Source of the DNA: Candidatus Zixiibacteriota bacterium
GTDB taxonomy: Bacteria > Zixibacteria > MSB-5A5 > WJJR01 > JAJRUJ01
DNA: 64,000 nt
Assembly (NCBI GenBank): GCA_020051695.1
Contig: JAGVQM010000019.1
Location: forward strand, 15,221-79,220
Reading direction: 5' to 3'
Of this stretch, positions 2,546-42,515 are shown in pieces. Position 1 is the first letter of the stretch. Each line of letters opens with the position of its first letter. A program made the position numbers and the translations under genes. A model generated the notes under the pieces. The model saw only the letters and a list, made by a program, of their open reading frames with translations. It was not told the origin of the DNA and did not search any database.

Positions 2546-3244
2546 GTGAAAAATTTGACAATCATCGTCGACAATAATCAGCGGGATTCGGCGGTCCCCA
2601 AGTACATCGAAAGCAAATCCGTGACCATTGAATATGCCAATTTGCGCACCGGGAGTTATTTGATCACCGATAACATGGCCATCGATCGTTTGACCAGCAC
2701 GCAATTTGTCGAGCTTACCTCGCAGAGGGCGTTATTCCGCCGGCTGCTTGATTTCAAGAAAACGTATGAAGAGCCGGTCCTGCTGGTCGAGGGCAATAGT
2801 CTGGCCAAGAATAAAAAAGTCTCCGGCGGCGCCCTGCGCGGGGCGATCTCCTATATCTGCTGTTTGAACCGCATTCCGATTATTTTTACCGCGGATGAAG
2901 TTGAGACCGCCGAGATGCTGTTCATTATCGCCAATCAAACACAGTTCGGCCTGGGCTATGAAGTCTCGGCCCCCGAACCGGAGACCCCGGCGGCGAGTGA
3001 AGGGCAACCGGTAAAGCCAAAGACTCCCGAGGATATCCAGTCGTATATCGTGCAGGCGCTGCCGGATGTCGGTCCGGCGCTGGCAACATCGATTATGACG
3101 ATGTACGGCAATTTGCGCACACTATTTTCCGCCACGGTCGGCGACCTGACCAAAGTCGAGGGCATCGGGCCGAAAAAGGCCAAGAAAATCATCGAGGTCT
3201 TCGATCTTGATTTCGCCGAGGAGAAAAAAGGCAAGAAAAAGTAA
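2546..3244 (+). CDS. ERCC4 (XPF/Mus81/Hef)-like nuclease-fold protein with C-terminal (HhH)2 domain; catalytic motif degenerate
   Basis: 'IIVDNNQRD...LRTGSYLITDNMAIDRLTSTQF' aligns with the ERCC4 signature (VDxRE...GDY...ERKxxxD) but with D->S and ERK->DRL substitutions. C-terminal 'LPDVGPALATSIMT...VEGIGPKKAKKII' is a tandem helix-hairpin-helix. Lys-rich tail. Confidence 0.55.
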   Translation: MKNLTIIVDNNQRDSAVPKYIESKSVTIEYANLRTGSYLITDNMAIDRLTSTQFVELTSQRALFRRLLDFKKTYEEPVLLVEGNSLAKNKKVSGGALRGAISYICCLNRIPIIFTADEVETAEMLFIIANQTQFGLGYEVSAPEPETPAASEGQPVKPKTPEDIQSYIVQALPDVGPALATSIMTMYGNLRTLFSATVGDLTKVEGIGPKKAKKIIEVFDLDFAEEKKGKKK

Positions 3245-3270: not shown

Positions 3271-3296
3271 GCCCGCCTTCGTGCGGGCTTTTTTTT
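3271..3296 (+). terminator. rho-independent terminator downstream of the ERCC4-like gene
   Basis: GCCCGC-cttcgt-GCGGGC hairpin followed directly by TTTTTTTT. Confidence 0.55.
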
Positions 3297-3387: not shown

Positions 3388-4029
3388 TCAGCTGAACAAT
3401 TTGAGCAGCCAATCGTCGATGAGGAACTGCACGCGCTCGATCAGCAGCGAAATACGCGCCATCACGGTATAGCCGAACGACGCGCCGAAGCCGATCATCA
3501 ATGTCCAGATGCCGACTTTGGCGATGCCGCCGGTGGCGCCTTTGTGTTCCTTGGAGAAAAAGAAATAGACCAACGACGTGATGATGCCGATCACCACCAC
3601 GACCGTGTTGATACCCGCCCAAAAGTCGGTTTGCGAATTATGGAGAGCGACAAACGACTGCACGGTGCCGAAGATTTGTTCGAGGACTTTGGTCTGCATC
3701 TCCAGCGGGATCGCGACGCCGGTAGCGATGCCCAGATAGAACGCCAGCGGGTACCGGGAAATCCAGGCCCAGCGTTTGACGATCCGGGTCCACATCAGGA
3801 CCCCGAGGAACGCCGGGATAAGATACCACCATTTCCCGGCCAGCAGTTTCTGCCAGATGTTGGGGATAGCCACGTTGACGTACAGGATAGAAACCCAGTA
3901 CCCTGCCGAAACGCCGACGACCAGATGTTCGGTAAATTTATAGAACGGATTGTCCTTGTACAAAAACGAAAAAATGCACAGGGTCAGCACCGCGGCGACG
4001 GTTGTGGCTATGGCAGTGGCGAAATCCAT
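3388..4029 (-). CDS. cassette protein D (copy 1): polytopic membrane protein of unknown function
   Basis: Paralogue of 34920-35684 and 38640-39383. Shared motifs FLYKDNPFYKF and FFSKEHKGAxGGxAKxGIWTLMxxFGASFGYTVMARISLLI. Several hydrophobic helices. Confidence 0.7.
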   Translation of the reverse strand: MDFATAIATTVAAVLTLCIFSFLYKDNPFYKFTEHLVVGVSAGYWVSILYVNVAIPNIWQKLLAGKWWYLIPAFLGVLMWTRIVKRWAWISRYPLAFYLGIATGVAIPLEMQTKVLEQIFGTVQSFVALHNSQTDFWAGINTVVVVIGIITSLVYFFFSKEHKGATGGIAKVGIWTLMIGFGASFGYTVMARISLLIERVQFLIDDWLLKLFS

Positions 4030-4032
4030 CGT

Positions 4033-4902
4033 TTATAACCCAACCCTGTTCTTTTTGCGGGTGGCAAAATACCCGATGTTACCGACGATAATAAAAATAA
4101 TAATAATTGAGTGCGCGACCACCTGCACGCTCATGCCTTCCACGGCCTTCCCCGGCGTGCCGACCAGCGTTTCATATTCTGCGGCGCCCTGTAATCCACC
4201 GAGGATTCCGAAAATCTGACCGGTCTGCAGATAGGGGTAATAGTCGGTGGCCATGACCCCGGTGACCCCGATGGCCAGCGGAACCTGATACCGGCCGTTG
4301 CCGTATGTAATCCACCAGTCGGTCGCGGAGGTCCCCGAAATGTTGATCACGGCTTTGATATTCTGGTAATTGCGGATACCCTTCATCATCGGCAGCGAAT
4401 CCAGCGGCACATTGTAATAATCGTTGGGGAAGGGGATCCGGTAGTTTTGTCCCATGCCCAGGATAATCAATATCGGGTATGGCTTGTAGCCCAGGAACAC
4501 CCAGTCTTTACCGCTTTCGGGGCGGTAGCCGGTCAGTTCAAAATGCCGCTGGCAGGCCGTGTCGATGGCTTCAGCAGCCATCCCCGGCCCGTTTTGATGC
4601 AAGGCGGTGATAATGACTTTGATCTTCTTTTCAAAACATTGTTTCAGGACGGCCCGCGTCATCGGGTGCAGCTCCGCAAGCGTGGAGGGATCGTAATCCA
4701 TCGCCAGATGGATATAATCGCCGTCACTGAGACTGTTCATATAATCGTAAATGCTGCGCGCTTCCTTGGAAATCGGGATCGGAATCACCGGCTTGGCAAT
4801 GACCGAGAGGACCACTGCCAGCATCAAAAATCCATAGACCCACCGCCGGTCGATGGCGAACATGCGTTCGAAAATGTTTTTTCGCGAATTCTGCTCAGTC
4901 AT
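4033..4902 (-). CDS. cassette protein C (copy 1): bitopic membrane protein with large periplasmic domain
   Basis: N-terminal TM (WVYGFLMLAVVLSVIA) and C-terminal TM (VVAHSIIIIFIIVGNIGYF). Paralogue of 35688-36548 and 39380-40237 (DYDPSTLAELxPM, GxxGAAEYE motifs). 3-nt gap to D. Confidence 0.7.
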   Translation of the reverse strand: MTEQNSRKNIFERMFAIDRRWVYGFLMLAVVLSVIAKPVIPIPISKEARSIYDYMNSLSDGDYIHLAMDYDPSTLAELHPMTRAVLKQCFEKKIKVIITALHQNGPGMAAEAIDTACQRHFELTGYRPESGKDWVFLGYKPYPILIILGMGQNYRIPFPNDYYNVPLDSLPMMKGIRNYQNIKAVINISGTSATDWWITYGNGRYQVPLAIGVTGVMATDYYPYLQTGQIFGILGGLQGAAEYETLVGTPGKAVEGMSVQVVAHSIIIIFIIVGNIGYFATRKKNRVGL

Positions 4903-4920
4903 GTTCCACCCGAGTTCAGA

Positions 4921-5547
4921 TCAATCCTTGCCCAGATATGATCGTTCAATACCCAGGACCACTTTCATCGCCGTCGAGACGATCCCCAGCCCGACCCCGA
5001 TCAAAATCGCCCGTTTGGCCGCCAGGTTGGGGACATTCAAAATCCAGTCCGAGGTTTTGCCGACCACCGAGGTCAGCGGCCCCAGCGGGAAAAACCGCAT
5101 CATGACGATGATGGCGGCGACCAGCAAAATACTGGCTAAAACCGAGCGGGCACGAAATGCCCGATAAGCGGCCGAGGCAATGAAAAAGGCCAGCAACGAA
5201 AACATCGTCGCCGAGATCGGGATCATGATGTTGTTGAAACTCCAGTCGAACGCCGTCGATAGCGGGGGATAATGATGGCCGATAACGCCGAACGCACTCA
5301 TGACAAACAAGCCGATGAGGGTGACGATGGAGTAACGCCAGGCCTCCGTTTTCCGCCTGATTCTGGTGATGCTCACGCGGGTCAGCGAAATGACGCCGAG
5401 CATCAGCGCAAACACGCCGATAATCGGCGGCCAGTCCAGGGCAATGAATTCGTAGAAAAACTCAGACTTTTCGTGGGGTACGAAATACTGCACGACCATA
5501 AACAGCCCGCAGGAAAAGATAATGATCAGTGGAAACTGCCGTTTCAT
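4921..5547 (-). CDS. cassette protein B (copy 1): polytopic membrane protein
   Basis: Paralogue of 36553-37341 and 40255-40917. Shared motifs ATMFSLLAFFIASAAYRAFRAR and NVPNLAAKRAILIGVGLGIVSTAMKVVLGIERSYLG. Confidence 0.7.
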   Translation of the reverse strand: MKRQFPLIIIFSCGLFMVVQYFVPHEKSEFFYEFIALDWPPIIGVFALMLGVISLTRVSITRIRRKTEAWRYSIVTLIGLFVMSAFGVIGHHYPPLSTAFDWSFNNIMIPISATMFSLLAFFIASAAYRAFRARSVLASILLVAAIIVMMRFFPLGPLTSVVGKTSDWILNVPNLAAKRAILIGVGLGIVSTAMKVVLGIERSYLGKD

Positions 5548-5556
5548 ATCCGTACC

Positions 5557-6906
5557 CTAAATATTCAATGCAAAATAATCCGTGAGCCAGCCCAGATTTA
5601 AAATCCCGGCAATCACTCCGATGACCATGGCCACCAACAGGAGCGCCTTGGCATAATCCTGGGCCTTTAACGTCCCCAACAGAATCGGTTCCCGTCCCAG
5701 GTAGGCCGATGCCGCGTATAATTCCTCACCGATGAGCGTATAGTCGCACGCCACAACGAAAAACGGAAGTTGGGTCACCCGGTCGGTCCCGGAAATCTGG
5801 ATCGACCCGGCCAGCGAACCGGTTTCCGCCAGGATCAGCGATTCGGCGTAGAACACACCCAGGTAGAAATTCGTCGCTGTCTGCCGCCGCAACATGACAC
5901 CGTTGACTGCGGCGACATAGGCAAACTGGTTTTGGGTGACAAAATAGACCATATCTTCGTTATAATCATCCACGCGGCCGGCGTCGATGTAGGCCTGTTT
6001 GACCGTTTCCTGCGCAATGGTCATCACAATCGAATCATAACAGGGGACGATAAGTTCGGTCTGGTACTCGGCGACTTTTTTGGCGACGCGGGAAAGAATG
6101 GTAAACGAGGCAATGGTGGCGATTTCATCGGGCGCCCCCAAACCGAGCACATACAAGATCGGCCGCCCCATTTCGGTCGCGCGGCCGATGGCCTCATCGA
6201 CGGCGTTGATCCCCGCCAACGGCCGGATATACAGTTCCCTGCCGCCCCTGGCCAGTCTGACCATGGTCAGCATCAAGCCCCCGAAGATCAGCACGGCCAG
6301 GACGACCCATGTTTTCCCCGTATGATACCACTGCCCGGATGATTCGACCGGGCCGAAGATTGCGGATTCAGAGACGGCGCCGCCGGTACCGACAGACAGT
6401 ATTTTAAACGAGAATCCGACATCGTCGGGAGAATAATCGTTGCCTTCGCGGGCCTTGCCGCCGCGATTAAAATATTCTGCAGTACCCGCGGGGATACTCG
6501 CAATTGTATCCCATACGCCCTCAACGAGATGCCACCAGGTGCCCTGTTCGTTACGCCATTGGGGCCCGTCGCCCTGTGGTTCGGTCAACGGACCCGCCCA
6601 GCCCGGCGTACGCAGGATCCTATATTGCAGGACATTGTTCCGGCCGCCCAGATCATCGGCGGAGATGTTCCAGGTCAGATGGAAGGCATGGCCATGGTCG
6701 TTGGGGAGGTCCACCACTTGAAGATTGCTGATCGGCGCGGGGGGAGGTTCGACAATAATGGTCGTGGAATCGACAATCAGCGTATCAGAATGGGGTTCGT
6801 CAACTTGCGCTGCTGCTGAAAGGGATAAAACACAACAAATAAAAACGGTTGCGGCTATGCAAATCCAACAATGGGTTGTCCTCACCCCAGCGGCCTCACC
6901 AATCAT
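5557..6906 (-). CDS. cassette protein A (copy 1): signal peptide - Fn3-like ectodomain - TM - conserved cytoplasmic domain
   Basis: Paralogue of 37350-38615 and 40951-42225. Invariant block GRATEMGRPILY...AESLILAETG...QLPFFVVACDYTLIGEELYAASAYL. Ectodomain has the Fn3-like pattern LTWxxxADD...YRILR. Confidence 0.7.
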   Translation of the reverse strand: MIGEAAGVRTTHCWICIAATVFICCVLSLSAAAQVDEPHSDTLIVDSTTIIVEPPPAPISNLQVVDLPNDHGHAFHLTWNISADDLGGRNNVLQYRILRTPGWAGPLTEPQGDGPQWRNEQGTWWHLVEGVWDTIASIPAGTAEYFNRGGKAREGNDYSPDDVGFSFKILSVGTGGAVSESAIFGPVESSGQWYHTGKTWVVLAVLIFGGLMLTMVRLARGGRELYIRPLAGINAVDEAIGRATEMGRPILYVLGLGAPDEIATIASFTILSRVAKKVAEYQTELIVPCYDSIVMTIAQETVKQAYIDAGRVDDYNEDMVYFVTQNQFAYVAAVNGVMLRRQTATNFYLGVFYAESLILAETGSLAGSIQISGTDRVTQLPFFVVACDYTLIGEELYAASAYLGREPILLGTLKAQDYAKALLLVAMVIGVIAGILNLGWLTDYFALNI

Positions 6907-7108
6907 CGGCGGCTAAGAAACCTAAATCCGAGCCAAAACGCAACCCCAAAAAGTGGAAATATCAGCGGAGTACTGTGAATATTATGTAAATATGCAGTAG
7001 AAAGAATTCTCGTGGCATGGGCATCTTCCGCCAAGGGCGGACAGGTGCCCCCGCAGATACACGGGCGGGACGCCCGTGCCACATGGTCATCATAGTCCGG
7101 GACTCGGG

Positions 7109-8458
7109 CTACGCCAGCTCAGCAAGAATCTTCTGAAAATCAGGAAAGCGGGCAAGGATGACATCGGCGTTGTCGATCGTCGTGTCCTTTTCACCGGATA
7201 AACCGGCGACCGCGAAAGCCATGCCGATATCACTGTCACCGTGACAATCAATGTCGGCGGCGTGCCATTCGGTAGGTCCTTCAATGGCCCAGCCGTCCTC
7301 CAGCTCGGCGACTTTGACCCCCATGCGGCGCAGGTTTTCGGTAACCGCGGCAAACGGCAGCAACCCGACATCCTGCAATTCTTTCGCGCCGCGAATCACA
7401 GTCACCCCCACCGCCGATCCGGCGACAACAGCGATTAACGGGAGCTGCCCCGCCAGCGAGGGAATTTCCGAGGCGGAAACTTTGGTAGCTTTGAGCGTCT
7501 CGCCGACCACCTCGATATCACCCACCGGCTCGCCGTTTTCGATACGCCGCTTCTGCGTGGTGATCTCGGCCCCCATGCGCCGCAGGATTTTCAACAGCCC
7601 GGTCCGCGTGGAATTCAAGCCGACGTCGGTGACGACAATCTCCGACCCCGGCCGCACGGTGGCGGCGGCGATCAGCGGCGCGGCCAGCTCATAATCGCCG
7701 GGGATGACCCAATCGACCGGCTGCAGCGGCGCCGCATGCGGAGTAACCGTCAGCCGTTTATGAAATACTTCCCGTTCGGCCAGCGCCTCGTCGGGACGCA
7801 GCAGTTGTTCGCGGCGGCTCAGCGGGCGCTCGGGCCGGACAATTGACGGTTCAATGCCATAGGCAGGTAAAATCCGCTCCAGACTGTCCGGCAACGGCAA
7901 ATCTTCGGTAATTTCGGTGGTGGACGAGGCAAACAGGGCTGCCATCAGCGCAACATCTTTAACCATCGGCAAGCAAGAGCCGGTGGCAATCAACGAACCG
8001 CGTGGCTGGACCGAATTGAATTTGATGCTGGTCTCATCGTTCTCACTGATTTCCGGCAAGATGCCCATGACCGCCAGGGGCTCGAAAACGGCCGCGCGGA
8101 TTGCCGCAGGCACATCTCCAACCAGTGTCGACGGCTGTTTTCCCCCGGCCAGCAGGCCCGCCAATAACCAGTAGGCGACGGGCGCGTCCGGACAATTCAA
8201 CTCGAGGGTGGCCGAAGTCTCCACGCCGGGCGGCCTGCCGTCGATTTGGATAACATGGCGCCCGGCGTTCACGGCCGAGCCGAGCCGGCGGACGCAGTCC
8301 AATACAGTTTGCGCACCGTGGTGCTCCGGCCAGTTGTTGATCGTCGATTTTCCGCCACACAACACCGACAGCACCGCTGCCCGCTGTGCCAGCGCAATGT
8401 CCGGCGGAAAACGGAAACTGCCCCGCACCCGCCGTGTCGGTTTAATCGTCAGTTTCAT
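7109..8458 (-). CDS. aroA: 3-phosphoshikimate 1-carboxyvinyltransferase (EPSP synthase)
   Basis: EPT-family fold. N-terminal GGKST...RA..L region and C-terminal 'DIGMAFAVAGL...ARFPDF' match AroA rather than MurA. Confidence 0.7.
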   Translation of the reverse strand: MKLTIKPTRRVRGSFRFPPDIALAQRAAVLSVLCGGKSTINNWPEHHGAQTVLDCVRRLGSAVNAGRHVIQIDGRPPGVETSATLELNCPDAPVAYWLLAGLLAGGKQPSTLVGDVPAAIRAAVFEPLAVMGILPEISENDETSIKFNSVQPRGSLIATGSCLPMVKDVALMAALFASSTTEITEDLPLPDSLERILPAYGIEPSIVRPERPLSRREQLLRPDEALAEREVFHKRLTVTPHAAPLQPVDWVIPGDYELAAPLIAAATVRPGSEIVVTDVGLNSTRTGLLKILRRMGAEITTQKRRIENGEPVGDIEVVGETLKATKVSASEIPSLAGQLPLIAVVAGSAVGVTVIRGAKELQDVGLLPFAAVTENLRRMGVKVAELEDGWAIEGPTEWHAADIDCHGDSDIGMAFAVAGLSGEKDTTIDNADVILARFPDFQKILAELA

Positions 8459-8464
8459 CAGAGA

Positions 8465-10177
8465 TCACATTTGTTCGGGCGCGGCCAGGCCCAGGAGGTA
8501 CAAGCCATCCCGCAAGACTTCGCGAATTGCAGCCGAAAGCAGCATCCGTGCCCGCGTCAGGGACTCATCATCGGTCATAATCCGCACCCGGTGATAATAG
8601 CTGCTGTACAGATCGACCAGTTCGATCAAATATGCAGCCAGCGTCATCGGCTCACAGGTCTCGGCCACCGTTTGCACCATCCGGGGATATTCATGCAGCA
8701 GTAACGCCAATCGTGTTTCCTCCGGGTCGGCCAGGACTGCGCAATCGATATCGGTTTCTACCGGCCTGCCATACTTGCGCAGCAAAGAACACAGCCGCGC
8801 GTGATTGTATTGCAGGAACGGCCCGGTGTGGCCGTCAAAGTTGAGCACGTCCTCAAAACTGAAAACGATATCCTTGTTGCGCCGCACGGCAATCTGCGAA
8901 AAAACCACGGCGCCTGTGCCGACTTGTTCGGCAACTTCATCGACGTTCGGCAACTCGGGATTTTTCTCGGCGATAATATCTTTCGTGCGCTGCACGGCCT
9001 GTTCAATGACATCGTCGAGGAACACGACCGTCCCTTTGCGCGTGGACATGATTTCCGTGCCGAATTTCACCCAGCCAAACTCGATATGTTCCATGTGGTC
9101 GGCCCACGCATACCCCATCTTTTTCAACGCGGCAAACAACTGGCGAAAATACAGGGCCTGGGCCGAGCCGACGATGTACAACGCCCGGCTGAAATGATAC
9201 GTCTTGTACCGGTACTCGGCGGCCGCCAGATCGCGCGTGGCATATAGCGAGGCATCATCGGCTTTGCGCACGACAAATGCCGGGAGCTGCGGGTCATCGA
9301 ATTCCATGACCAGCGCATTTTCCGATTCATGGGCCAGGCCCGTCTCCTGCAGCCGTTTGATCAACGGCCCGAGATGCTCGTTATAGAAGGCCTCGCCGGC
9401 GTACGAGTCAAAGCCCACCCCCAGGCGCGCGTAAATGCGGTTGAATTCCTGTAACGACAGGTCGCGGAACCGCTGCCATAATGCGCGGTTGTCCGGGTCG
9501 CCGTCCTCGAGTTTTTTGAATTCGGCGCGGCCGTGTTCTTCCAGTTCCGGATTGTACTTGGCCTCTTCGTGAACCCGGACATATAAATCATACAGGGCAC
9601 GGATCGGCTGGACGGACAGTTGTTCTTCCGAACCCCATTGCCGGAAGGCGTAAATCAATTTGCCGAACTGTGTGCCCCAATCGCCGAGGTGGTTGATTGC
9701 CACGGGCTTGTAACTCAATTTTTCCAGCACGCGATACAGGCTGTTGCCGATCACGGTCGAACGCAGGTGCCCGACCCCGAACGGCTTGGCGATATTGGGG
9801 TGCGAATAATCCATCACGACGACTTGGCCCATGCCCTCGTCGGCAGCCGCATAACGGTCCCGCATGTGGACGATCTTTGGTAGCACTTCGGCAGCGATGA
9901 TCCCCGGTTGTTCCCAGAAATTCAGAAAACCGCCGACCGCTTCGATCTTTTGGACCGTCGCCGGACAACTAATCGTATCCGCGACTTTCCCGGCGACCAC
10001 CGGCGGCGGCTGGCACAATGTTTTGGTGAAGCCGAACAGGGGAACGGCAAACTGGCCAAAACCCGGCTTGGCCGGCAATTGCATCAGCCGTTTGATTTCC
10101 TCGGCCGATGTTTCCACACCCAGGCGGCCCAGCGCCTCAGCAGTCGAACGGGCAATATCGGCGAAAATATCAGTCAT
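8465..10177 (-). CDS. argS: arginine--tRNA ligase
   Basis: 570 aa. Class-I synthetase HIGH-like 'GVGHLRST', 'MSTRKG' (KMSK variant), anticodon-binding DALR-type C-terminus. Ends 7 nt before the aroA start. Confidence 0.9.
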   Translation of the reverse strand: MTDIFADIARSTAEALGRLGVETSAEEIKRLMQLPAKPGFGQFAVPLFGFTKTLCQPPPVVAGKVADTISCPATVQKIEAVGGFLNFWEQPGIIAAEVLPKIVHMRDRYAAADEGMGQVVVMDYSHPNIAKPFGVGHLRSTVIGNSLYRVLEKLSYKPVAINHLGDWGTQFGKLIYAFRQWGSEEQLSVQPIRALYDLYVRVHEEAKYNPELEEHGRAEFKKLEDGDPDNRALWQRFRDLSLQEFNRIYARLGVGFDSYAGEAFYNEHLGPLIKRLQETGLAHESENALVMEFDDPQLPAFVVRKADDASLYATRDLAAAEYRYKTYHFSRALYIVGSAQALYFRQLFAALKKMGYAWADHMEHIEFGWVKFGTEIMSTRKGTVVFLDDVIEQAVQRTKDIIAEKNPELPNVDEVAEQVGTGAVVFSQIAVRRNKDIVFSFEDVLNFDGHTGPFLQYNHARLCSLLRKYGRPVETDIDCAVLADPEETRLALLLHEYPRMVQTVAETCEPMTLAAYLIELVDLYSSYYHRVRIMTDDESLTRARMLLSAAIREVLRDGLYLLGLAAPEQM

Positions 10178-14914: not shown

Positions 14915-17275
14915 CTACCACCAGGACCAGAATTCGACACGGAAAAAATAAACGACACGACGCAAAACCAGTTTAATCAGCGGTCGGTCACCGCAATAAA
15001 TCTTGGCCTGTCCGGTCATGCCGGGGAATAAGCGGCCGTCAAGATTAGGGACCATGGTAATGACGTCGTACGTACTCTTCTCGCCGACAGCATATGGCGC
15101 AATCGCCAGTTTGTTGACCCGGCCTTCAAACATCTCCAACGGATAGGAACGCACCTTTAATTTAACCGGTGCGCCGATAACTACTTCACCGATATCATCC
15201 TCGGACGTTGGGATAATGACCCGCATGGTGTCGGTCCGTGCCAGTTCGAAAATAGTCTCGCCGGTGCGCGCGCGGGTCACCCGGCCGGAAAACGGCGCGT
15301 GGAAGACCGACGCCGCAATCTGCGAACGATAATAATCGACCACGGCGGCCAGCTCGGCGATTTCGGCTTCCTTGATGGCGATTTCCTCGATCTTGGGCGC
15401 GGAAATCAACAGGGACAATTCGCTTTGTTTGGCCTGTTTCGCCTGCCTGCCGACCGCTAGTTGCGTGCGGTACAGTTCAAATTCGCCATCAGAGATCAGA
15501 TTTCGTTCGTGCAGCCCTCGGGCGCGTTCGTGCTCGGCCTCGGCGTTTTCCAGCCGCGCCTCGACCTGGGCCAGCTCGGCCCGGAGCTGACGGACCTGCT
15601 CCTCCTTGGGACCGGAAAACAATAAATTCAGTTCGGCCTGCGCACGGCGCGACCGTGCCTCCATTGCCGCCAACTGGCTGGTATAACGATTACAGGAAAT
15701 GACCAGGACCGTATCACCGGCGGAGACCTGCTCACCCTCCACAAAACGCGGAGTGATCGCAATCGCCGAAAATTCCGCCGCAGTCAACTGCAGCGAGCTG
15801 CGTTCGCGGATCTCGCGCAGCCCGGCCTGGACCAACTCCGTTTCAACAATGCCGGCCTCGGGGTTAAAAATCCGATATACCGATGCCGGCTCGACACGGC
15901 AGACCGAACCGACCTTGCGCTCGGCCTGGATGAAAAAGGACGCCAGCAGCACAAGCAGGACGGCGCCCCAGAAAATGTACGGGCGCCTGGAGCGCGGCGA
16001 TTCGGGTTTTGAATCTGCCGGGGATTGGGCCGGGATCGGGGGCCCCTCTTTTTTTGTTCCCGAACTTGCGGGTTGCTCCTCGCCGCTTTTCATGTCTTTC
16101 TCCTTCCACAACGGCCGGGCCAGCATGATGCCGATAGCCCCCCATAAGACCAGCGGCCCTGCTGCGCCGAACCGGTCCGCCAAAAACGCGGTCACATGGT
16201 ACCCGACAAAACCCAGCAAAAATACCGAATACGTGAGGGCAATCAGCCCATACCAGAAAAATACCCGGCCATGTTTGTCGTCGGAGTGCACGAGACGACG
16301 GCCACATGTCCATTCGCTTACCCGCCGCTTGAGATGGCCGAACGCGCGCGCCCGCAGGTTCGGCAAATCCAGCAGATCGGCCAGCAGGTAATAGCCGTCA
16401 AGTTTGATCAATGGATTGAGATTGAACAACACGACGGCCAGCGAAACCGCGGCGACCAGAAAGGCAAAGTGATTGATCACGGTGCCCAATGCGGTGATCC
16501 GCCAGATGAAAACCGCAAGGGCAGTGGCGACCATCTGCACAAACAGCCCGGCGAGCATGACGTTCGCCTTGTGCCGTTTTTTGGGCAATAAGTAGGCGTC
16601 CGACATGTTGCAATACACGCAGGGCTGAAAATATAACAGCAAAAAGCCCATCTCGGTCACTTGTCCGCCATAATGTTTCAGGGCCACAGCGTGCCCGAAC
16701 TCATGAACAGCAGCCAGCACGAAAATAGCCGCCAGAATACCGATAATCGAGCCGAGCCGAAAAACATCCGCAAACCGCATGAAAAAAGTGCCGCTGTTGG
16801 CGCCGGCGACCGCCAGGGATAACCCGATCAACGCCACCGCCGAGATAAAAGACTCCGGAGTGAACATCCAGCGGACCCGGCGTTCGATTCCGGCCACCAA
16901 TCGATCGGGATTCAAGGCCGCGATCCGCCACATCAACAGCCGGCCCCACAATGAGCGCCCCGGCCGGTCGTGCCGCCTGCTCCGGGAAATGGCGGCCTCG
17001 GCGTACACCCCCTCGAACAGGCACAACCGCTGCATTTTGTGAAAAAACGCCAGGGCTGCGCCGGGGGGCAACTGCGCGTTAAATTTGGTGGAAAAAGCTG
17101 CTTCGGCGCCCTCGACCGTCGTCATACCGTCCATGCGTGTGATCAGGAAATATTCCGGTTCCCGCAATTTGAAAAAACGTCCCGTTGCGGGATCTTTGAT
17201 GATATAAACGGTCTGCCCGCCGGCATCCTGGGGGCTGGCGATAATATCGGGCCGCAACTTGAAATATTCGGGCAT
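14915..17275 (-). CDS. fusion protein: peptidase M50 (site-2 protease) N-terminal membrane domain + HlyD-family periplasmic adaptor C-terminal domain
   Basis: HExxH 'VHEFGHAV' and the S2P 'NLNPLIKLDG' motif within TM helices. Second half has long Arg/Glu/Ala coiled coil (QLAAMEARSRRAQAELN...AELAQVEARLENAEAEH) and β-domain like HlyD/membrane-fusion proteins. Confidence 0.7.
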   Translation of the reverse strand: MPEYFKLRPDIIASPQDAGGQTVYIIKDPATGRFFKLREPEYFLITRMDGMTTVEGAEAAFSTKFNAQLPPGAALAFFHKMQRLCLFEGVYAEAAISRSRRHDRPGRSLWGRLLMWRIAALNPDRLVAGIERRVRWMFTPESFISAVALIGLSLAVAGANSGTFFMRFADVFRLGSIIGILAAIFVLAAVHEFGHAVALKHYGGQVTEMGFLLLYFQPCVYCNMSDAYLLPKKRHKANVMLAGLFVQMVATALAVFIWRITALGTVINHFAFLVAAVSLAVVLFNLNPLIKLDGYYLLADLLDLPNLRARAFGHLKRRVSEWTCGRRLVHSDDKHGRVFFWYGLIALTYSVFLLGFVGYHVTAFLADRFGAAGPLVLWGAIGIMLARPLWKEKDMKSGEEQPASSGTKKEGPPIPAQSPADSKPESPRSRRPYIFWGAVLLVLLASFFIQAERKVGSVCRVEPASVYRIFNPEAGIVETELVQAGLREIRERSSLQLTAAEFSAIAITPRFVEGEQVSAGDTVLVISCNRYTSQLAAMEARSRRAQAELNLLFSGPKEEQVRQLRAELAQVEARLENAEAEHERARGLHERNLISDGEFELYRTQLAVGRQAKQAKQSELSLLISAPKIEEIAIKEAEIAELAAVVDYYRSQIAASVFHAPFSGRVTRARTGETIFELARTDTMRVIIPTSEDDIGEVVIGAPVKLKVRSYPLEMFEGRVNKLAIAPYAVGEKSTYDVITMVPNLDGRLFPGMTGQAKIYCGDRPLIKLVLRRVVYFFRVEFWSWW

Positions 17276-28895: not shown

Positions 28896-30131
28896 CTAAT
28901 TCCGGGGCAGCATCGCGGCCAGGGCCGCGTCCATACCCGGCACGCAATTGTCCCAGAAAAAGCGAGTCACGACCCCGGCGAGCTGTCCGGCATTCCCCGG
29001 CAGCCGGCCGTCACGGGCAATGCATGCGGCAAGGTGCGCCAAACGATCCGCCAGCTCCTCGGGCGAACCGTTATAGAAATATTCACCCCTTGCTGCTGCG
29101 GTCCCGGCAGCAAGGATTTCCACATACGACAGCCGCCGTGGCAGCAGCGGCCAAGCCCCGGCGGCGATGGCCTCCACTGCGCTGATACCGAAAAACTCAT
29201 GAGTCGCAGTCGAGACAAAAACATCGGCTGTGGACAGCACGCCGACATACTCCTCCCGCCGCGCGAGGTACCCCCAGTGTTCAATCGCTTCGGCGAATTG
29301 TTCTTTCGCGCGGGAAAACGCGCCGGGGACTTCCGCAAACTGCTGACCGATGACACTCACGCGGAAGGTGACGCCGCGATCACTGAGTATGTGCAACGCC
29401 CGGAAAAAATCATCCGGATTTTTATCATGTTCCCAGCGGGCCGCCCAAACAATGCGTAACGGACCGGGCCGGCGCGCACCCCGCGCCGGAAAGTTTTCGA
29501 TGCCCGGCGGAAAAACCCGGGCTTTCCGGCGAAGTTGATCGACCACTGCCAACGGCTGATAATCGGGCATCCGGCGCAGGAATACATCCAGGGCATCAAG
29601 AAAACAATCGCGATGGTATGCAGAATTAAACCACACAGCCGCGGCCGTCAGCGCAGTGGTCAGATTGGTCATGGCAAAATGATAATCGCGTTCATGTTCC
29701 TCGCGCACGGGATAGGTCAGTTGGTTTTCGTGGAAATATGCCACTGCCGGCAGCACCCGGAGGGGTTCATCAACCAGCCCCCGAAACTCCGCGAGGTTGA
29801 GCATATCCGAACACCAGACCAGGTCCCACGCTTCGCCGCGCCGCAGGCGGCGGTCCAGCTCGGCGGCAAAAGTGACCGCGGCATGGCGCATCCGCCATTT
29901 CCATTTGGTGGCGGGCAGGGTCAGGAACGTCCAGTGATGAACACTGCATTTTGCCCAGCCGTCCAGAAAGGCCCGGTGGCTGCCGCCGTAGTATGGCTCC
30001 AGCGCGAGAACTCTCATTGGTCTGTCCCGGAACACAAGGTGAACGTTGCCGGGGACACCGGCAAGGTAATACGGCAGCGTTTCGACGGTAATCAGGCGGG
30101 TGGCCGGATCATCCGGCAACCGGGGGCGCAC
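28896..30131 (-). CDS. glycosyltransferase (GT4-like) with N-terminal DUF3524-like domain
   Basis: C-terminal 'EFFGISAVEAIAAGAWPLLP' EX7E-type GT-B motif. N-terminal half resembles the DUF3524 region of tRNA-queuosine mannosyltransferase-like enzymes. Confidence 0.5.
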   Translation of the reverse strand: MRPRLPDDPATRLITVETLPYYLAGVPGNVHLVFRDRPMRVLALEPYYGGSHRAFLDGWAKCSVHHWTFLTLPATKWKWRMRHAAVTFAAELDRRLRRGEAWDLVWCSDMLNLAEFRGLVDEPLRVLPAVAYFHENQLTYPVREEHERDYHFAMTNLTTALTAAAVWFNSAYHRDCFLDALDVFLRRMPDYQPLAVVDQLRRKARVFPPGIENFPARGARRPGPLRIVWAARWEHDKNPDDFFRALHILSDRGVTFRVSVIGQQFAEVPGAFSRAKEQFAEAIEHWGYLARREEYVGVLSTADVFVSTATHEFFGISAVEAIAAGAWPLLPRRLSYVEILAAGTAAARGEYFYNGSPEELADRLAHLAACIARDGRLPGNAGQLAGVVTRFFWDNCVPGMDAALAAMLPRN

Positions 30132-34594: not shown

Positions 34595-34741
34595 TTGTCC
34601 TGCTCGCTGCCCCCATGGTTTTCTCCGGGGCTTGTTGACTTCGAGGCCTATTTAATTAGAATGCAACATCTTAAGTCAAGGCAAAACCATTATGGGGAAA
34701 GGCGGCGGCGCGGACGACATCACCGGCGAAGAACCGTAGAC

Positions 34742-34815
34742 TACCCCCGGCTGGATTCGAACCAGCTACCCTCGGCTTAGAAGGCCGATGCTCTATCCAT
34801 ATGAGCTACGGGGGC
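34742..34815 (-). tRNA. tRNA-Arg (anticodon TCT)
   Basis: Reverse complement folds as a cloverleaf: GCCCCCG/TA/GCTC...GAGC/A/TCGGC-CTTCTAA-GCCGA/GGGTA/GCTGG-TTCGAAT-CCAGC/CGGGGGT/A. CCA not encoded. Confidence 0.85.
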
Positions 34816-34828
34816 ATGTGCCGACGCT

Positions 34829-34919: not shown

Positions 34920-35684
34920 CTAGTTAATAAAGCCCAGCCAGTCGCCGAACAGGAAGCGCATGCGGCCGACCAACAGGGAAATACGCGCCATCACCGTGTA
35001 GCCGAAACCCGCGCCGAAAGTGACCATCAGCAGGTAAATGCCCACGCGCGAGGCGGCGCCGAATGCGCCCTTGTGTTCTTTGGAGAAAAAGAAATACACG
35101 ATCCCGCAAAAGACGCCAAGGAACACCACGACTGCTGACAGCGAATCCGTCGTCAGGAAACCGCCGTCCGGCCCGAACACGGCCAGCGGGTTGATCGTGT
35201 TATAAATCTGCCCGATAAAATCCGAACGCAGGTAGCGGACAAAATTCAATCCGGCAGTGGTCCCGACAATAAACGCCAGCGACCAGCGGGAAATCCAACC
35301 AAGCTTCGAAGACAACCGCAGCAATAAAATAATGCCCAAAATCAGCGGCAGGAGATACCAGTAATTCGGTTCGGCATCGGCCACCGAGGGTAAAAATGGC
35401 CGTACCGCCGGCGGATGCAGCCGCCCGATCAGGTTGGGGACCAGTGTCGTCCAAAACCCCATCGACATCCAGTACGCCGCCGAGACCCCAACAAACAAAT
35501 GCTCGGCAAATTTATAGAACGGGTTGTCTTTATACAAAAAGCTCAGGATACATAAAGTCAGGAACGCGCCGAACGTGATATAAAACCCTTCAAACGCCCG
35601 GGCATCGCGCGCCATGATCGAGATGACGAACGCAATGATCAGCACGATAAATCCGATCAGATAGATGATAGCCCTGCGTTGCAT
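34920..35684 (-). CDS. cassette protein D (copy 2)
   Basis: FLYKDNPFYKF and FFFSKEHKGAFGAASRVGIYLLMVTFGAGFGYTVMARISLLVGR motifs. Paralogue of 3388-4029. Confidence 0.7.
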   Translation of the reverse strand: MQRRAIIYLIGFIVLIIAFVISIMARDARAFEGFYITFGAFLTLCILSFLYKDNPFYKFAEHLFVGVSAAYWMSMGFWTTLVPNLIGRLHPPAVRPFLPSVADAEPNYWYLLPLILGIILLLRLSSKLGWISRWSLAFIVGTTAGLNFVRYLRSDFIGQIYNTINPLAVFGPDGGFLTTDSLSAVVVFLGVFCGIVYFFFSKEHKGAFGAASRVGIYLLMVTFGAGFGYTVMARISLLVGRMRFLFGDWLGFIN

Positions 35685-35687
35685 CGC

Positions 35688-36548
35688 CTATTTCGCCCGC
35701 GCTTTCCGTTTCCGGTCGATGAAAAAGGTCGCGTTGCCGATAATGATGAACAGCATGATCACGATATGCGCCACCGCCTGCGGCCCCATCATCTCCAGCC
35801 CGCCGTGCGGCATTTGCTCAAAATCGGGATATTTCCGGATCATTTCCGATTCGTATTCGGCTGCGCCCTTGATCCCCCCCATCATGCCCAGCATCTGGTT
35901 GGGATAATACGGATACAACTGCGGCGCCGAGACCGCGGTCACCCCGCCGGCCACCGGTATGTTGCCGGGGTCGCCGGCAAAAAGGATCCACTCTTTCAAA
36001 CCGGGAAAGCCGCCGCCGAAGGCCGCGATTAAGTCCATGTTTTTCAAACTGCGGACATCCCGCATCATCGGAATGCTGTCAATCTGCGTGCCGTTGACAT
36101 CGGTAGTATACATCTTCTTCATGTCGGTAATGATCACGTTGATCAGGCCCTGATTACCCGCCTTGTATCCCAGATGGACATAATCCACACCGCAAACCTT
36201 ATCCGGGAAATGTGTCGTGACGATACGGTCGATCGTCTCATCGGCCAGATTTTGCCCCGTGCCCCACAACGCCATGACATACAATTTCAGATTTCGCCGG
36301 CAACAGTGATACATCACGGCATCAACCATCGGTTGCTGTTCGGGAACAGTGGAGGGATCGAAATCCAGCGAAATCAACACCCGCGAACCCTCAGGCAGGG
36401 TCTCGATTTTATCGAAGATCTTCTGCACAATCGGCGTAATCCGCTCGGGAAAGATGACATTGAACAACAGGGGAATAATTACGGACAAGGCAATAAACAA
36501 AAAGATTATCCGCCGGTCGATGTTCTTGATGGTATCGAAAAAGGCCAT
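35688..36548 (-). CDS. cassette protein C (copy 2)
   Basis: 'IDRRIIFLFIALSVII' N-TM, 'SLDFDPSTVPEQQPM', 'GGIKGAAEYE', C-TM 'AVAHIVIMLFIIIGNATFF'. 3-nt gap to D2. Confidence 0.7.
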   Translation of the reverse strand: MAFFDTIKNIDRRIIFLFIALSVIIPLLFNVIFPERITPIVQKIFDKIETLPEGSRVLISLDFDPSTVPEQQPMVDAVMYHCCRRNLKLYVMALWGTGQNLADETIDRIVTTHFPDKVCGVDYVHLGYKAGNQGLINVIITDMKKMYTTDVNGTQIDSIPMMRDVRSLKNMDLIAAFGGGFPGLKEWILFAGDPGNIPVAGGVTAVSAPQLYPYYPNQMLGMMGGIKGAAEYESEMIRKYPDFEQMPHGGLEMMGPQAVAHIVIMLFIIIGNATFFIDRKRKARAK

Positions 36549-36552
36549 GGCG

Positions 36553-37341
36553 TTAATCCTTGTCCCGTCCGAGATATGTCCGTTCGATGCCCAGGATCAC
36601 CCGCAGCGACATCGAAATTACTCCCAGCGAAATGCCGATAATAATTGCCCGCTGGCCCGCCAGGTTGGGGACCCCCATAATCCAGTTGGTCAGGTTAGGC
36701 ACTTCGAAAAACGACAGCGCATCAGGCAGCCAGAACGTGGCATAGTACCCGGCGGGCGTCCGCCCCAGCAGAATGACAAAGGCAGTGACCAGCAGGACGG
36801 TGGCTTCCTTGTTTTTAGCCCGGAATGCGCGATACGACGCCGAGGCCACAAAAAAGGCCAGCAGCGCGTACATCGTCGCTTTCAGCGGAGTAAAGACATA
36901 CGTGAAAAAGTCCTGAAACACCGAGCCGGTGGCGGTGAGATTCCCCACCCAGCCGCCGGGGTTGCCGATTTTGAACAACCCGGCCCAGAGCATGACGAAA
37001 AATCCGATGAGTGTGACCATCGAGAAAAACCAGTCTTTGCCGCGCCGGTCCTCGATCCCGCCCATCGCATGGAAGGGAAACGCAATGAGCATCTTCAACG
37101 GCCAGAAGCCCCCCTGTTTCCTGCTTTCCGTGAAATAGAACTTCAACCCGCGGAAGAACCGCCCACTGTGGATCCGCACCAGGTTGCCGCCGCCGAGGAA
37201 GAAGGCAAACACGGCGATGATATCAAAATACAGGCTGAAATTTTCACCCAGCCGGCCGAACGGGTCATGCGGAATAAACGCCGCGATGATCAGCACCGCG
37301 CCGACGGTGAACGTGATTAATAATGGTACCTGCCGTTTCAT
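36553..37341 (-). CDS. cassette protein B (copy 2)
   Basis: Start reassigned to MKRQVPLL (ATG 37341) by alignment with B1 and B3. 'ATMYALLAFFVASASYRAFRAK' and 'VPNLAGQRAIIIGISLGVISMSLRVILGIERTYLG'. Confidence 0.7.
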   Translation of the reverse strand: MKRQVPLLITFTVGAVLIIAAFIPHDPFGRLGENFSLYFDIIAVFAFFLGGGNLVRIHSGRFFRGLKFYFTESRKQGGFWPLKMLIAFPFHAMGGIEDRRGKDWFFSMVTLIGFFVMLWAGLFKIGNPGGWVGNLTATGSVFQDFFTYVFTPLKATMYALLAFFVASASYRAFRAKNKEATVLLVTAFVILLGRTPAGYYATFWLPDALSFFEVPNLTNWIMGVPNLAGQRAIIIGISLGVISMSLRVILGIERTYLGRDKD

Positions 37342-37349
37342 GGTTTTGC

Positions 37350-38615
37350 CTATTGATTCAGCCGGAACAGATCGCGCACCCATTCGCCGGCGGTGGTGGC
37401 AATCCCGACATTAAACAATGACCCGATAGTCAGCAGTGTCACGCCGGCCAGGATCGCCAGCATCGCGATCATCTTGCCGACATCCTGCCCCTTCAACGAC
37501 CCCAGCTGGCGCGGTTCGTGCGACAGATAAGCCGAGGCGGCGAACAACTCCTCACCGATCAGCGTATAATCGCAGGCCGCGACAAAAAACGGCAGCTGTG
37601 CGGGCATCGCCGTGCCGGCGATCTGGATCGCCTCGATGGAATGGCCGGTCTCGGCCATAATCAGCGATTCGGCGAAAAACGCGCCGAGATAGAAACAGGT
37701 CGCCGGCCTTTCGCGCACCATGATCCCGTCCACCGCCGCGACATACCCGAACTGTTCGTCGGTGACATACTGCACATAATCATCCGAGTATGCATCGGGG
37801 CGCCCGGCGGCCAGATAGGCCTCTTTAATCGACTCGCGCGCGGTGGTCATCACAATCGAGCGTGAAGTCGGGACAAACAACTTGGAATCATATTCGGCGA
37901 TGGTCTTGGCGATCCGCCCCAAGATCGTAATCCCGGCCACGGTCTGCACGTCGTCCATGTCCTGGATGCCGGGGATAAACAAAATCGGCCGCCCCATTTC
38001 GGTGGCGCGTCCGATCGCCTCGTCGACCGCTTCGAGTCCGGCGATTTTGCGGATAAAGAGTATTTTGCCCCTTTTGGCCGAGGCGATGAAATACCCGATA
38101 AACAACGAGATGATTCCACCGACGACAAACAAATTCAGGATATTGAAATTAAACCACTGCGCGGACGATCGGACCGGACCGATCACCGGCGAAGACGACG
38201 AGCCCCCGGCTGTCTGGGTCTCGATTCTGTAATAGAAATCCGTCCCCGGCACGGTCGAGGCATCAGTGTATCTTTTTTCTCCGGCCGAGGAAAACCCGGT
38301 CTCGCGAAACGGCCCTTCCGGCGATTCGGCGCGCAAAATGCGGTAGCCCGTGACCAGGTTTTCGCCGGGACGGTCATCGGCCGACAGCTCCCAAAAGACA
38401 TTGATCGAATGCCCTTCATCGGAAGGCGTGTCTTCCGCCCCCGCATTGACCGGCGGCGCAGGCCGGCGGACCGCGGCCATCATCCCCGCAACGCCCGTAG
38501 CGGCGGAATCGGCCGGCGCCGAATCGACAACCTGGGCGACCATGCCGGAAGCCGGCAGCAGCATCCCTGCCAGAAGACAGCAAAAAAGAATTTTGTGCAG
38601 CACCTTCATGGTCAC
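37350..38615 (-). CDS. cassette protein A (copy 2)
   Basis: Signal peptide, Fn3-like 'NVFWELSADDRPGENLVTGYRILRA', TM, 'GRATEMGRPILFIPG...AESLIMAETG...QLPFFVAACDYTLIGEELFAASAYL'. Confidence 0.7.
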   Translation of the reverse strand: MTMKVLHKILFCCLLAGMLLPASGMVAQVVDSAPADSAATGVAGMMAAVRRPAPPVNAGAEDTPSDEGHSINVFWELSADDRPGENLVTGYRILRAESPEGPFRETGFSSAGEKRYTDASTVPGTDFYYRIETQTAGGSSSSPVIGPVRSSAQWFNFNILNLFVVGGIISLFIGYFIASAKRGKILFIRKIAGLEAVDEAIGRATEMGRPILFIPGIQDMDDVQTVAGITILGRIAKTIAEYDSKLFVPTSRSIVMTTARESIKEAYLAAGRPDAYSDDYVQYVTDEQFGYVAAVDGIMVRERPATCFYLGAFFAESLIMAETGHSIEAIQIAGTAMPAQLPFFVAACDYTLIGEELFAASAYLSHEPRQLGSLKGQDVGKMIAMLAILAGVTLLTIGSLFNVGIATTAGEWVRDLFRLNQ

Positions 38616-38639: not shown

Positions 38640-39383
38640 CTAGTTAATCAATTGCAACCAATCACTCATGAGATAATCCATGCGGCCGATCAACAGCGAT
38701 AACCGGCTCATGACCGTATACCCGAATGATGCGCCGAACGTGAGCATCAGTGTCCAGATCCCGATTTTGGCCACCCCGCCGAATGCGCCTTTATGTTCCT
38801 TGGAAAAATAAAAATAGATCAGTCCGGAGAGCGTCCCGATGACCAATATTGCCTGAGAAATGGTCGCCCACAAGTCGAGATTCCCGGCGGCATCGTAACG
38901 CTGCAGCGGGCCAGCAGAGGCCCCCAGCTGGAGGATGCCGTTGGAAACAAAGTAATTGATAAAATACAACCCCGCCGTCGCGCCGACCACCACCGCCAGC
39001 GGCCAGCGGGAGATCCACCCCGCTTTGGGAAACAACCGCATCAGCATCAGGACGCCCAGAAGCCCGCCGATCAGCATCATCCACCGGTCATCCCATCCGC
39101 CGCCCTGCACGAACGTCGTGTGATAGGCCGCGCCGACCCCGACGAAGAGCTTGGAATACATATTCTGCCAGAATAATGAGACAAACCAATAGCCGGCGGA
39201 AATTCCCACAAATGCGGCTTCGGAAAACTTGTAATACGGGTTGTCTTTATACAAGAAGGAAAAGATACCGATGGTAAAAAACGCACCCAGGGTCACCGCA
39301 AGGCCCTGGGATGCGGCCAGGATCGCAAAAACGGCGATTCCGACGGCGATAACGATATAGCCGACTACTTTGGTGTTCATCAT
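38640..39383 (-). CDS. cassette protein D (copy 3)
   Basis: FLYKDNPYYKF and YFSKEHKGAFGGVAKIGIWTLMLTFGASFGYTVMSRLSLLIGR. Start ATG overlaps the C3 stop (ATGA). Only 25 nt before the A2 start. Confidence 0.7.
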   Translation of the reverse strand: MMNTKVVGYIVIAVGIAVFAILAASQGLAVTLGAFFTIGIFSFLYKDNPYYKFSEAAFVGISAGYWFVSLFWQNMYSKLFVGVGAAYHTTFVQGGGWDDRWMMLIGGLLGVLMLMRLFPKAGWISRWPLAVVVGATAGLYFINYFVSNGILQLGASAGPLQRYDAAGNLDLWATISQAILVIGTLSGLIYFYFSKEHKGAFGGVAKIGIWTLMLTFGASFGYTVMSRLSLLIGRMDYLMSDWLQLIN

Positions 39384-40237: not shown

Positions 40238-40254
40238 GCCGTTCCTGCCTGTCA

Positions 40255-40917: not shown

Positions 40918-40950
40918 CTTCGCTCAAACCCTTCCCGTCTCCCCACGACG

Positions 40951-42382: not shown

Positions 42383-42515
42383 GGCAATTATTCCCCGGAG
42401 AACCAATCAACGGCGGCTCTGCTGGCCGCTGATCAGTGCGGTGCATTTATCGAAAAACCTGTTGACATCCGGCCCCGTGCCCGCTTGCTCTAGGGGAAAG
42501 GATAGAGCGCAACTG

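Follow-up and report, generated by a model that had tools for sequence, protein, structure and literature searches.

Within a stretch of 64,000 nucleotides (nt) of the Candidatus Zixiibacteriota bacterium assembly GCA_020051695.1 (contig JAGVQM010000019.1, positions 15,221 to 79,220; this whole stretch is called the window below) we analyzed four consecutive minus-strand open reading frames (ORFs), A1, B1, C1 and D1. In the ORF listing they occupy exactly the coordinates 3388-6906 which a first-pass annotation of the bare sequence had given for one copy of a four-gene cassette. All four ORFs of this copy 1 are intact and the gaps between them measure 3-18 nt. Copies 2 and 3 form a tandem pair elsewhere in the window, with a spacing of only 24 nt between D3 and A2 (Table 1). 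Copy 1 had been described as a third complete A-B-C-D set lying about 28 kb from this pair. We can confirm this description: the three copies match gene for gene in identical order and orientation, and the distance from D2 to A1 is 28,013 nt.

Counterpart proteins of the three copies align in BLASTP with E-values of 1e-45 to 1e-111, and no cross-family match among A, B, C and D is better than E = 0.3. Thus, the homology of the copies is far beyond chance, and copy 1 belongs to the cassette with four homologous genes in the common order, on the common strand and in tight spacing (intra-cassette gaps of the three copies are -4 to 33 nt). The divergence is larger than first estimated. In place of the annotated identity of about 50-60% we measured 32-45% between copy 1 and copies 2 and 3 (A 43%, B 35-41%, C 32-37%, D 45%), and only the pair A2 and A3 reaches 53%. 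At the DNA level the cassettes resemble each other only in short stretches (67-80% identity), with no sign of recent gene conversion. For two genes the longest ORF is over-extended. Homology of B2 (longest ORF 36553-37383, minus strand) begins at Met15, which places the start at 37341, and homology of C3 (longest ORF 39380-40426, minus strand) begins at Met64 with the start at 40237; in its long form the C3 ORF would share 172 nt with B3.

Table 1. Coordinates in the window of the cassette genes, of the predicted parts of A1 and C1 and of neighboring features (aa, amino acids)
Feature	Position	Strand	Size or extent	Remarks
A1	5557-6906	-	449 aa	ORF listing
B1	4921-5547	-	208 aa	ORF listing
C1	4033-4902	-	289 aa	ORF listing
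D1	3388-4029	-	213 aa	ORF listing
A1 signal peptide	6808..6906	-	residues 1-33	ends ...SAAAQ; hydrophobic 15-33; model helix 7-29
A1 FN3-like beta-sandwich outer domain	6337..6735	-	residues 58-190	
A1 first membrane helix	6247..6321	-	residues 196-220	hydropathy 2.34; model helix 196-220, pLDDT 80-90
A1 DUF6754 core, predicted cytoplasmic	5689..6246	-	residues 221-406	invariant columns; strand/helix alternation in the model
A1 C-terminal membrane helix	5602..5688	-	residues 407-435	model helix with pLDDT 71-88; hydropathy
C1 periplasmic domain, predicted	4129-4767	-	~215 aa	hydropathy, charge
Type-2 cassette	34920-38615	-		A2 37350-38615, B2 36553-37341, C2 35688-36548, D2 34920-35684
Type-3 cassette	38640-42225	-		A3 40951-42225, B3 40255-40917, C3 39380-40237, D3 38640-39383
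aroA-A1 spacer	6907..7108	-	202 nt	GC-rich hairpin right after aroA, AT-rich stretch next
aroA	7109-8458			upstream of A1
argS	8465-10177			beyond aroA
GC-rich hairpin GCCCGC-loop-GCGGGC + T8	3271..3288			between convergent D1 and ERCC4-HhH
ERCC4 + helix-hairpin-helix (HhH; XPF/Mus81-like) nuclease gene	2546-3244	+		convergent with D1
tRNA-Arg(TCT)	34741-34816	-		103 nt downstream of D2

The first-pass annotation had proposed to compare the trees of the four families, and these trees are congruent. In neighbor-joining trees with 200 bootstraps, which are distance-based and not maximum likelihood, the types 1, 2 and 3 each form a monophyletic clade for A, B, C and D (bootstrap 34-100%; type 2 has 100% in all four trees), and types 2 and 3 are always sisters (bootstrap 69-98%). 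The distance matrices of A, B, C and D correlate at 0.61-0.72. Furthermore, the nearest paralogues of the Zixibacteria-type cassettes fall into the uniform patterns 1111 (n = 29), 2222 (n = 17) and 3333 (n = 17) without shuffling. Thus, the cassette was duplicated as a unit, twice, and was not shuffled later. As shown by the trees, type 1 first separated from a common ancestor of types 2 and 3, which then split from each other, and both duplications preceded the divergence of the sampled Zixibacteria-like genomes. The type-1 clade is kept across 25 cassettes and, of the three types, type 1 comes nearest in B, C and D to the one cassette which other phyla have. A useful result is therefore that the seemingly dispersed copy 1 is the conservative type-1 member.

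Protein A is the one member of the cassette that falls into a described family. Residues 191-444 of A1 match Pfam DUF6754 (PF20539) with E = 7.5e-115, that is, with 382.9 bits at a gathering threshold of 27 bits and over model positions 3-256 of 257. In all three A proteins of the window the last 250 residues match the family end to end. PF20539, however, is a family without assigned function and covers A alone, as B, C and D are in no Pfam or NCBIfam family. A literature search for DUF6754, PF20539 and Zixibacteria terms yielded nothing relevant. From hydropathy and the positive-inside rule we infer that the DUF6754 core faces the cytoplasm and the FN3-like domain the periplasm. The predicted layout of A1 is thus a signal peptide, presumably cleaved, an FN3-like periplasmic domain, a membrane helix, the cytoplasmic DUF6754 domain and a C-terminal membrane helix. 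An AlphaFold2 model of full-length A1 has a mean predicted local distance difference test score (pLDDT) of 78.7.

The outer domain of A1 opens with a conserved DxPNDxG...W..S.DD motif and the rest of it evolves fast. Its fold is FN3-like, with seven strands in a beta sandwich which can be superposed on solved domains of this type. It differs from the FN3 domains of single-pass receptors and bacterial surface proteins in that A1 itself gives no Pfam fn3 match at E <= 1 and in that the domain is dispensable and replaceable: some cassettes lack it and keep B, C and D, and elsewhere it is replaced by 700-1100 beta-rich residues. Of nine such long homologues scanned, eight gave no Pfam match in this region and one has HEAT repeats. 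In A proteins of 262-303 aa the outer region is absent, and in A proteins of up to 1341 aa it reaches about 1100 aa. Variants of the outer length are found at locus L006 (11283-12167), at loci L013, L015, L016, L062, L065 and L068 and in the proteins P0252, P0258, P0304 and P0331. The DUF6754 core, in turn, is 70-87% identical between orthologues. It has an alpha/beta N-terminal half and a near-invariant, charge-poor and acidic C-terminal half with the motif AESLxLAETG ... QxPFFxxACDYTLIGEELxAASAYL. A direct count gives 9 charged residues among the 66 of the C-terminal half and, modeled alone, this half scores a pLDDT below 50. The low charge and the poor folding in isolation would agree with a burial of this segment, either within the membrane or at a subunit interface.

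For B1, hydropathy and charge distribution predict six membrane helices with both termini inside. A predicted cytoplasmic loop (SAAYRAFRAR) and the C-terminal sequence GIER are conserved. By the same means C1 is predicted to start inside, to cross the membrane with one helix, to expose a periplasmic domain and to return with a second helix, which carries the invariant residues His264 and Asn275. D1 has about six membrane helices by hydropathy, and D2 and D3 have one extra N-terminal helix compared with D1. The conserved D motifs FLYKDNPFYKF-EH and YFFFSKEHKG are located in predicted cytoplasmic loops. Neither B1, C1 nor D1 has a match in Pfam or NCBIfam, and when 59 diverse members of every one of these three families were scanned with Pfam, no family recurred consistently. 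The family TMD0_ABC, which was matched by 15 of the 59 B proteins with a best E of 1e-4, was rejected as noise from membrane-helix composition. Profiles of the A, B, C and D families searched against all PDB sequences gave nothing below E = 0.4. With hhalign, B is unrelated to D (probability 0.6%) and A is unrelated to C; therefore the cassette does not contain an internal duplication. In two genomes an extra intact C gene directly follows D, giving the order A-B-C-D-C' (L058 5181-6047 and L061 7287-8111). Spare binding-protein genes beside transporter operons are a pattern which resembles this arrangement.

We compared copy 1 with its orthologues at the loci L081 and L083. As synonymous sites are near saturation, the ratios of nonsynonymous to synonymous substitution rates (dN/dS) are approximate. 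They amount to 0.03-0.07 for the cytoplasmic domain of A, 0.04 for the periplasmic domain of C, 0.06-0.12 for B, 0.14-0.18 for D and 0.17-0.20 for the FN3 domain of A, which also answers the proposal of the first-pass annotation to set the outer against the cytoplasmic domains. Copy 1 is under strong purifying selection. With 94-96% amino-acid identity in spite of nearly saturated synonymous sites, the cytoplasmic domain of A ranks with the best conserved parts of these genomes and should therefore have an important role.

The three types also differ from each other at positions which are conserved within each type. We counted 13 type-specific conserved columns in the N-terminal half of the cytoplasmic domain of A, 15 in B, 11 in the periplasmic domain of C and 10 in D. 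The outer domain of A does not carry the type differences: the FN3 domain has no type-specific conserved columns, and even orthologues are only 27-40% identical in it. Most differentiated is the periplasmic domain of C with 54-58% identity within a type versus 31-37% between types, the largest drop of all regions. Functional specialization of the copies, as first proposed, fits these data, since each type is kept by its own purifying selection and has its own columns. One could also regard copy 1 as a spare or decaying duplicate without a distinct role, as it stands apart from the other two copies and adjoins unrelated genes. However, its four intact ORFs, the dN/dS of 0.03-0.2 against two orthologues, the type-specific columns in all four proteins, the retention of the type-1 clade in those 25 cassettes and the closeness of type 1, in B, C and D, to the cassette of phyla with a single one make such a spare copy barely conceivable, and at the sequence level this reading is refuted.

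The cassette is widespread. In a 90%-identity collection A1 has at least 8000 homologues, and the DUF6754 part of A counts 2017 representatives at 50% identity, always C-terminal and in proteins from 300 to 1341 aa. A genome scan found the A family in at least 590 species genomes. For synteny we used the best 80 of at least 590 loci, as far as the fetched DNA extends, and extracted 102 complete cassettes. In these 80 loci B, C and D follow A on one strand wherever the DNA reaches. The loci are from metagenome-assembled genomes labelled Zixibacteria, Ignavibacteria, Poribacteria, WOR-3, Stahlbacteria, Fermentibacteria, Aegiribacteria, Eisenbacteria and Armatimonadota. Coatesbacteria carry the cassette too, and among the loci found by the genome scan none belongs to a cultured organism. 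As no neighbor gene is conserved across phyla, the cassette looks self-contained.

Which known systems resemble this cassette? In architecture only, it is similar to the tripartite ATP-independent periplasmic (TRAP) transporters DctPQM and the tripartite tricarboxylate transporters (TTT) TctABC, which are likewise multi-subunit systems with no ATPase and with one subunit bearing an extracytoplasmic domain. In common is also that the operons multiply and diverge and that some genomes have an extra stand-alone copy of the periplasmic subunit. The cassette differs, however, with six plus six instead of four plus twelve helices and without any sequence or profile similarity. Protein C is tethered by two membrane helices, whereas the binding proteins of these transporters are free or lipoproteins, and A is a fourth subunit whose conserved cytoplasmic domain is without counterpart. 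No cassette member has a Pfam or NCBIfam match to DctQ/DctM, TctA/TctB or DctP/TctC. With the ATP-binding cassette (ABC) and energy-coupling factor (ECF) transporters the cassette has in common a pair of subunits which have about six helices each and are not related to each other, and also a cytoplasmic domain of the alpha/beta kind and a domain outside the cytoplasm. Here the differences are that a Walker A motif is found in none of the 12 cassette proteins of the window and that the cytoplasmic domain is part of A, where it is fused to a membrane helix on either side. There is no ABC_tran, BPD_transp or ECF match above threshold and no ATPase gene adjacent to copy 1. The conserved Arg-rich cytoplasmic loop of B (YRAFRAR) may resemble the coupling helices of EcfT.

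By these comparisons the cassette fits no described kind of system; it is new in being uncharacterized and unplaceable, not as a demonstrated mechanism. With a confidence just short of an even chance we suggest that it represents an unrecognized class of four-subunit machine of the cytoplasmic membrane which lacks an ATPase and any detectable relative among the characterized transporters, motors, secretion systems or sensors, which is confined to uncultured lineages and of which Zixibacteria have three insulated, co-evolving versions. If true, the new class would define a new way of moving or signaling across the inner membrane. Once the complex is understood, four protein families which are now orphans would be assigned together, and a membrane function specific to the large uncultured phyla of sediments and sponges could come to light. 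Three versions which have co-evolved as complete sets are a natural experiment for the determinants of specificity and for the subunit interfaces.

The genes at 3388-6906 are type 1 of an ancient four-gene operon with three paralogues, and this operon codes for four integral membrane proteins. Our overall explanation, which we consider evenly balanced between right and wrong, is that these proteins act as a membrane complex; that the complex is of a transport type is our best guess, at low confidence. The strict synteny and the tight gene spacing suggest that the four proteins form one stoichiometric complex in the cytoplasmic membrane. The conserved core of this complex would be located at the cytoplasmic face and comprise DUF6754 from A, an Arg-rich loop from B and the loops KDNPFYKF and SKEHKG from D. 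The variable parts, an FN3-like appendage in A and the periplasmic domain in C, would face the periplasm. More specifically, and here we are tentative because this version, although the one we prefer, is on balance rather unlikely, the complex could be a self-contained and ATPase-independent secondary translocation complex for a solute or ion. B and D, with about twelve helices together, could form the translocation path. The membrane-tethered periplasmic domain of C, which differs among the three types, would select the substrate. Finally, the near-invariant acidic and hydrophobic segment of A (AESLxLAETG ... ACDYTLIGEEL) could gate or couple transport at the inner face.

Several points weigh against transport. 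It is argued from architecture alone, because sequence and profile searches with A-D and fold searches with A only revealed no likeness to known transporters. There is no riboswitch in Rfam, no regulator and no metabolic neighbor which would indicate a substrate. The full-length AlphaFold2 model places residues 345-373 of A in an ordinary soluble alpha/beta fold and not in membrane hairpins. Moreover, the outer part of A ranges from absent to more than 1000 aa, which resembles receptors or anchored surface proteins rather than a transporter subunit.

This last point leads to a receptor or signaling complex, in which A would be the sensor with DUF6754 as transmitter, B, C and D would be obligatory partners and the three types would sense different cues. 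A fast-evolving outer region of nearly zero to over 1000 aa combined with a nearly invariant cytoplasmic domain is the usual receptor pattern, and the outer fold of A is FN3-like. On the other hand, in most phyla no kinase, cyclase, HAMP, PAS or anti-sigma module and no response regulator is found in or beside the cassette. Three dedicated membrane partners with about 14 helices together are unusual for a sensor, the A proteins which have lost the outer domain nevertheless keep B, C and D, and the types differ mainly in C and not in the outer domain of A. We therefore regard a receptor as improbable.

Similarly, we would assign only a small chance to an envelope machine which anchors, exports or moves a structure of the cell surface or the periplasm. 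A surface polymer or, in a motility of the gliding type, an adhesin would be examples, and the outer part of A would be the element which such a machine displays or uses to transmit force. The large beta-rich outer regions of A would suit this role. In addition, four WOR-3/Stahlbacteria loci have on the same strand after the cassette a DUF4388 protein, four small ORFs without Pfam match and ExbB-ExbD (L036 6792-11258, L048, L060 and L066); DUF4388 is PATAN-like. But this linkage to ExbBD and PATAN is confined to one clade; separate ExbB and ExbD genes downstream of the cassette occur only in WOR-3 loci, and A-D themselves have no MotA_ExbB or ExbD match which would place them with MotAB, ExbBD or TolQR. 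An aspartate in the membrane helix typifies MotB, ExbD and TolR, and in the cassette no invariant acidic residue was identified in a predicted membrane helix. The topology of C, with the N-terminus inside, helix, periplasmic domain, helix and the C-terminus inside, is that of the polysaccharide co-polymerases (Wzz/PCP). The likeness is limited to the topology, however, since C has neither a Pfam Wzz match nor a PDB sequence match. Pfam matches to the Wzz, Wzx, Wzy, MotA, ExbD or Gld families are likewise missing from the cassette, and three tandem paralogues per genome would be unusual for an envelope machine.

We now turn to the setting of the type-1 cassette. As first annotated, the neighbors upstream of A1 are aroA and argS, followed by trpF, a major facilitator superfamily (MFS) gene, dapF, an aminotransferase gene and a fusion of M50 (S2P) with HlyD. 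The first-pass annotation took this placement among housekeeping genes as informative and suggested to look for the same context in related genomes. The outcome is divided: the downstream genes are kept in relatives but the upstream genes are not. In L081, L083 and L084, whose A1 is 68-77% identical, type 1 stands alone as well and has in common the downstream genes ERCC4-HhH, a gene for a 422-423-aa protein, HD and HEAT. The ERCC4-HhH gene is also found near type 1 of L086, 6 kb away, and is split into two ORFs in L083. Upstream of A, L081 and L083 have either TIR/TPR/BNR genes or a restriction-modification system with a cytochrome c-like gene; the L084 contig ends 981 nt upstream of A. The adjacency to aroA and argS is thus specific to this genome, a lineage-specific accident, and as close relatives differ in their upstream genes it carries no functional message. 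In Poribacteria (L043 6170-7797 and 13-14 other loci) aroK-aroB immediately precede the single cassette. With aroA here and aroK-aroB in these 14-15 loci, different genes of the shikimate pathway stand before the cassette in two phyla. This is curious, but we rejected a connection with that pathway as probably coincidental, because close relatives lack aroA at this place and tandem-array genomes have other neighbors.

That copy 1 is dispersed holds for this window but is a derived state. Many Zixibacteria-like genomes have an array of 12 genes in tandem with the type order 3-2-1, such as L001, L085 and L088, the last two with spacers between the cassettes that do not exceed about 50 nt; besides L085 and L088 the array occurs in at least 11 loci. 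Some genomes have the order 3-1-2', Poribacteria and WOR-3 have a single cassette, and L086 with 6.4 kb between cassettes is an intermediate state. The window keeps the order 3, 2, 1 and the orientation along the coding strand with 28 kb between types 2 and 1. When compared with L085 and L088, the tRNA-Arg(TCT) gene stands precisely where D2 is succeeded by the type-1 cassette in the tandem-array genomes, and it is plausible that this site is the rearrangement breakpoint. From the gene orders, the separation of copy 1 is a lineage-specific rearrangement of an ancestral tandem triple, without inversion.

Could copy 1 instead be a recent arrival, be it a mobile or defense island, a piece of another replicon or a mis-join to the aroA block, the last being a possibility which the first-pass annotation had itself raised? 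The region upstream of A1 is indeed variable in close relatives, with TIR, restriction-modification and SLFN/AlbA-like genes, and the GC content of copy 1 (0.53-0.54) is slightly below that of the aroA block (0.585). However, GC is lower in the other two cassettes too, the tetranucleotide correlation is 0.95-0.97 for every 8-kb segment of the window, the downstream flank is syntenic in four relatives, and A1 and AroA are on one public contig of 178 kb. Type-1 orthologues occur throughout the clade, no integrase or repeats were seen, and PADLOC-DB gave no match for eight cassette proteins at E <= 0.01. The uniform tetranucleotides and the short, diverged DNA likeness thus give no sign of a mis-join or a foreign island, in agreement with the first-pass view that copy 1 is not a recent island. 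We consider such an origin very improbable and, by composition and synteny, largely refuted.

Between aroA and A1 the spacer of 202 nt is probably the promoter region of cassette 1 itself, as judged from its sequence. A sigma-70 scan gave no minus-strand match for this spacer and no overall enrichment over shuffled sequence. At the other end of the cassette the hairpin is terminator-like for the plus-strand ERCC4-HhH gene and possibly bidirectional; in a terminator scan, shuffled sequence scored no lower. The sole Rfam matches were two tRNAs, and neither a riboswitch nor a leader was found close to any of the cassettes.

A few other observations concern the surroundings of the cassettes. In L085 (14481-17860), L088 (12195-15538) and about 16 loci in total, type 1 is followed by a conserved ORF of 115-116 aa without Pfam match and then by pyruvate phosphate dikinase, and in L085 and L088 an ADP-forming acetyl-CoA synthetase-like gene comes next. 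The window has no homologue of pyruvate phosphate dikinase. In L087 (896-10631; Coatesbacteria CP070755.1) the full cassette is followed by an ORF of 123 aa, a protein of 603 aa of the PF13941 'MutL' family and an ORF of 375 aa, after which comes a second, partial unit in which A and B are present, C is truncated and D is missing. On the Zixibacteria chromosome CP070824.1 the type-3 D gene is apparently split (L014 3687-4208 versus L077 10868-11377, about 530 kb apart). One locus has A3-B3-C3 and part of D3, and at the other, cassettes 2 and 1 come after a fragment of D3. This points either to a rearrangement that broke within D3 or to an error of the assembly.

In the window, an ORF of 247 aa without Pfam match (42441-43184, plus strand) and a protein of 979 aa with four fn3 domains (43199-46138, minus strand) are located just upstream of cassette 3. 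The block of 28 kb between D2 and A1 contains a glycosyltransferase with a QTMAN_N domain, the N-terminal domain of the tRNA-queuosine mannosyltransferase (28896-30131, minus strand). Finally, the M50-HlyD neighbor mentioned above is an unusual fusion of 786 aa which joins a Peptidase_M50 (site-2 protease) region to HlyD-type membrane-fusion domains (14915-17275, minus strand).

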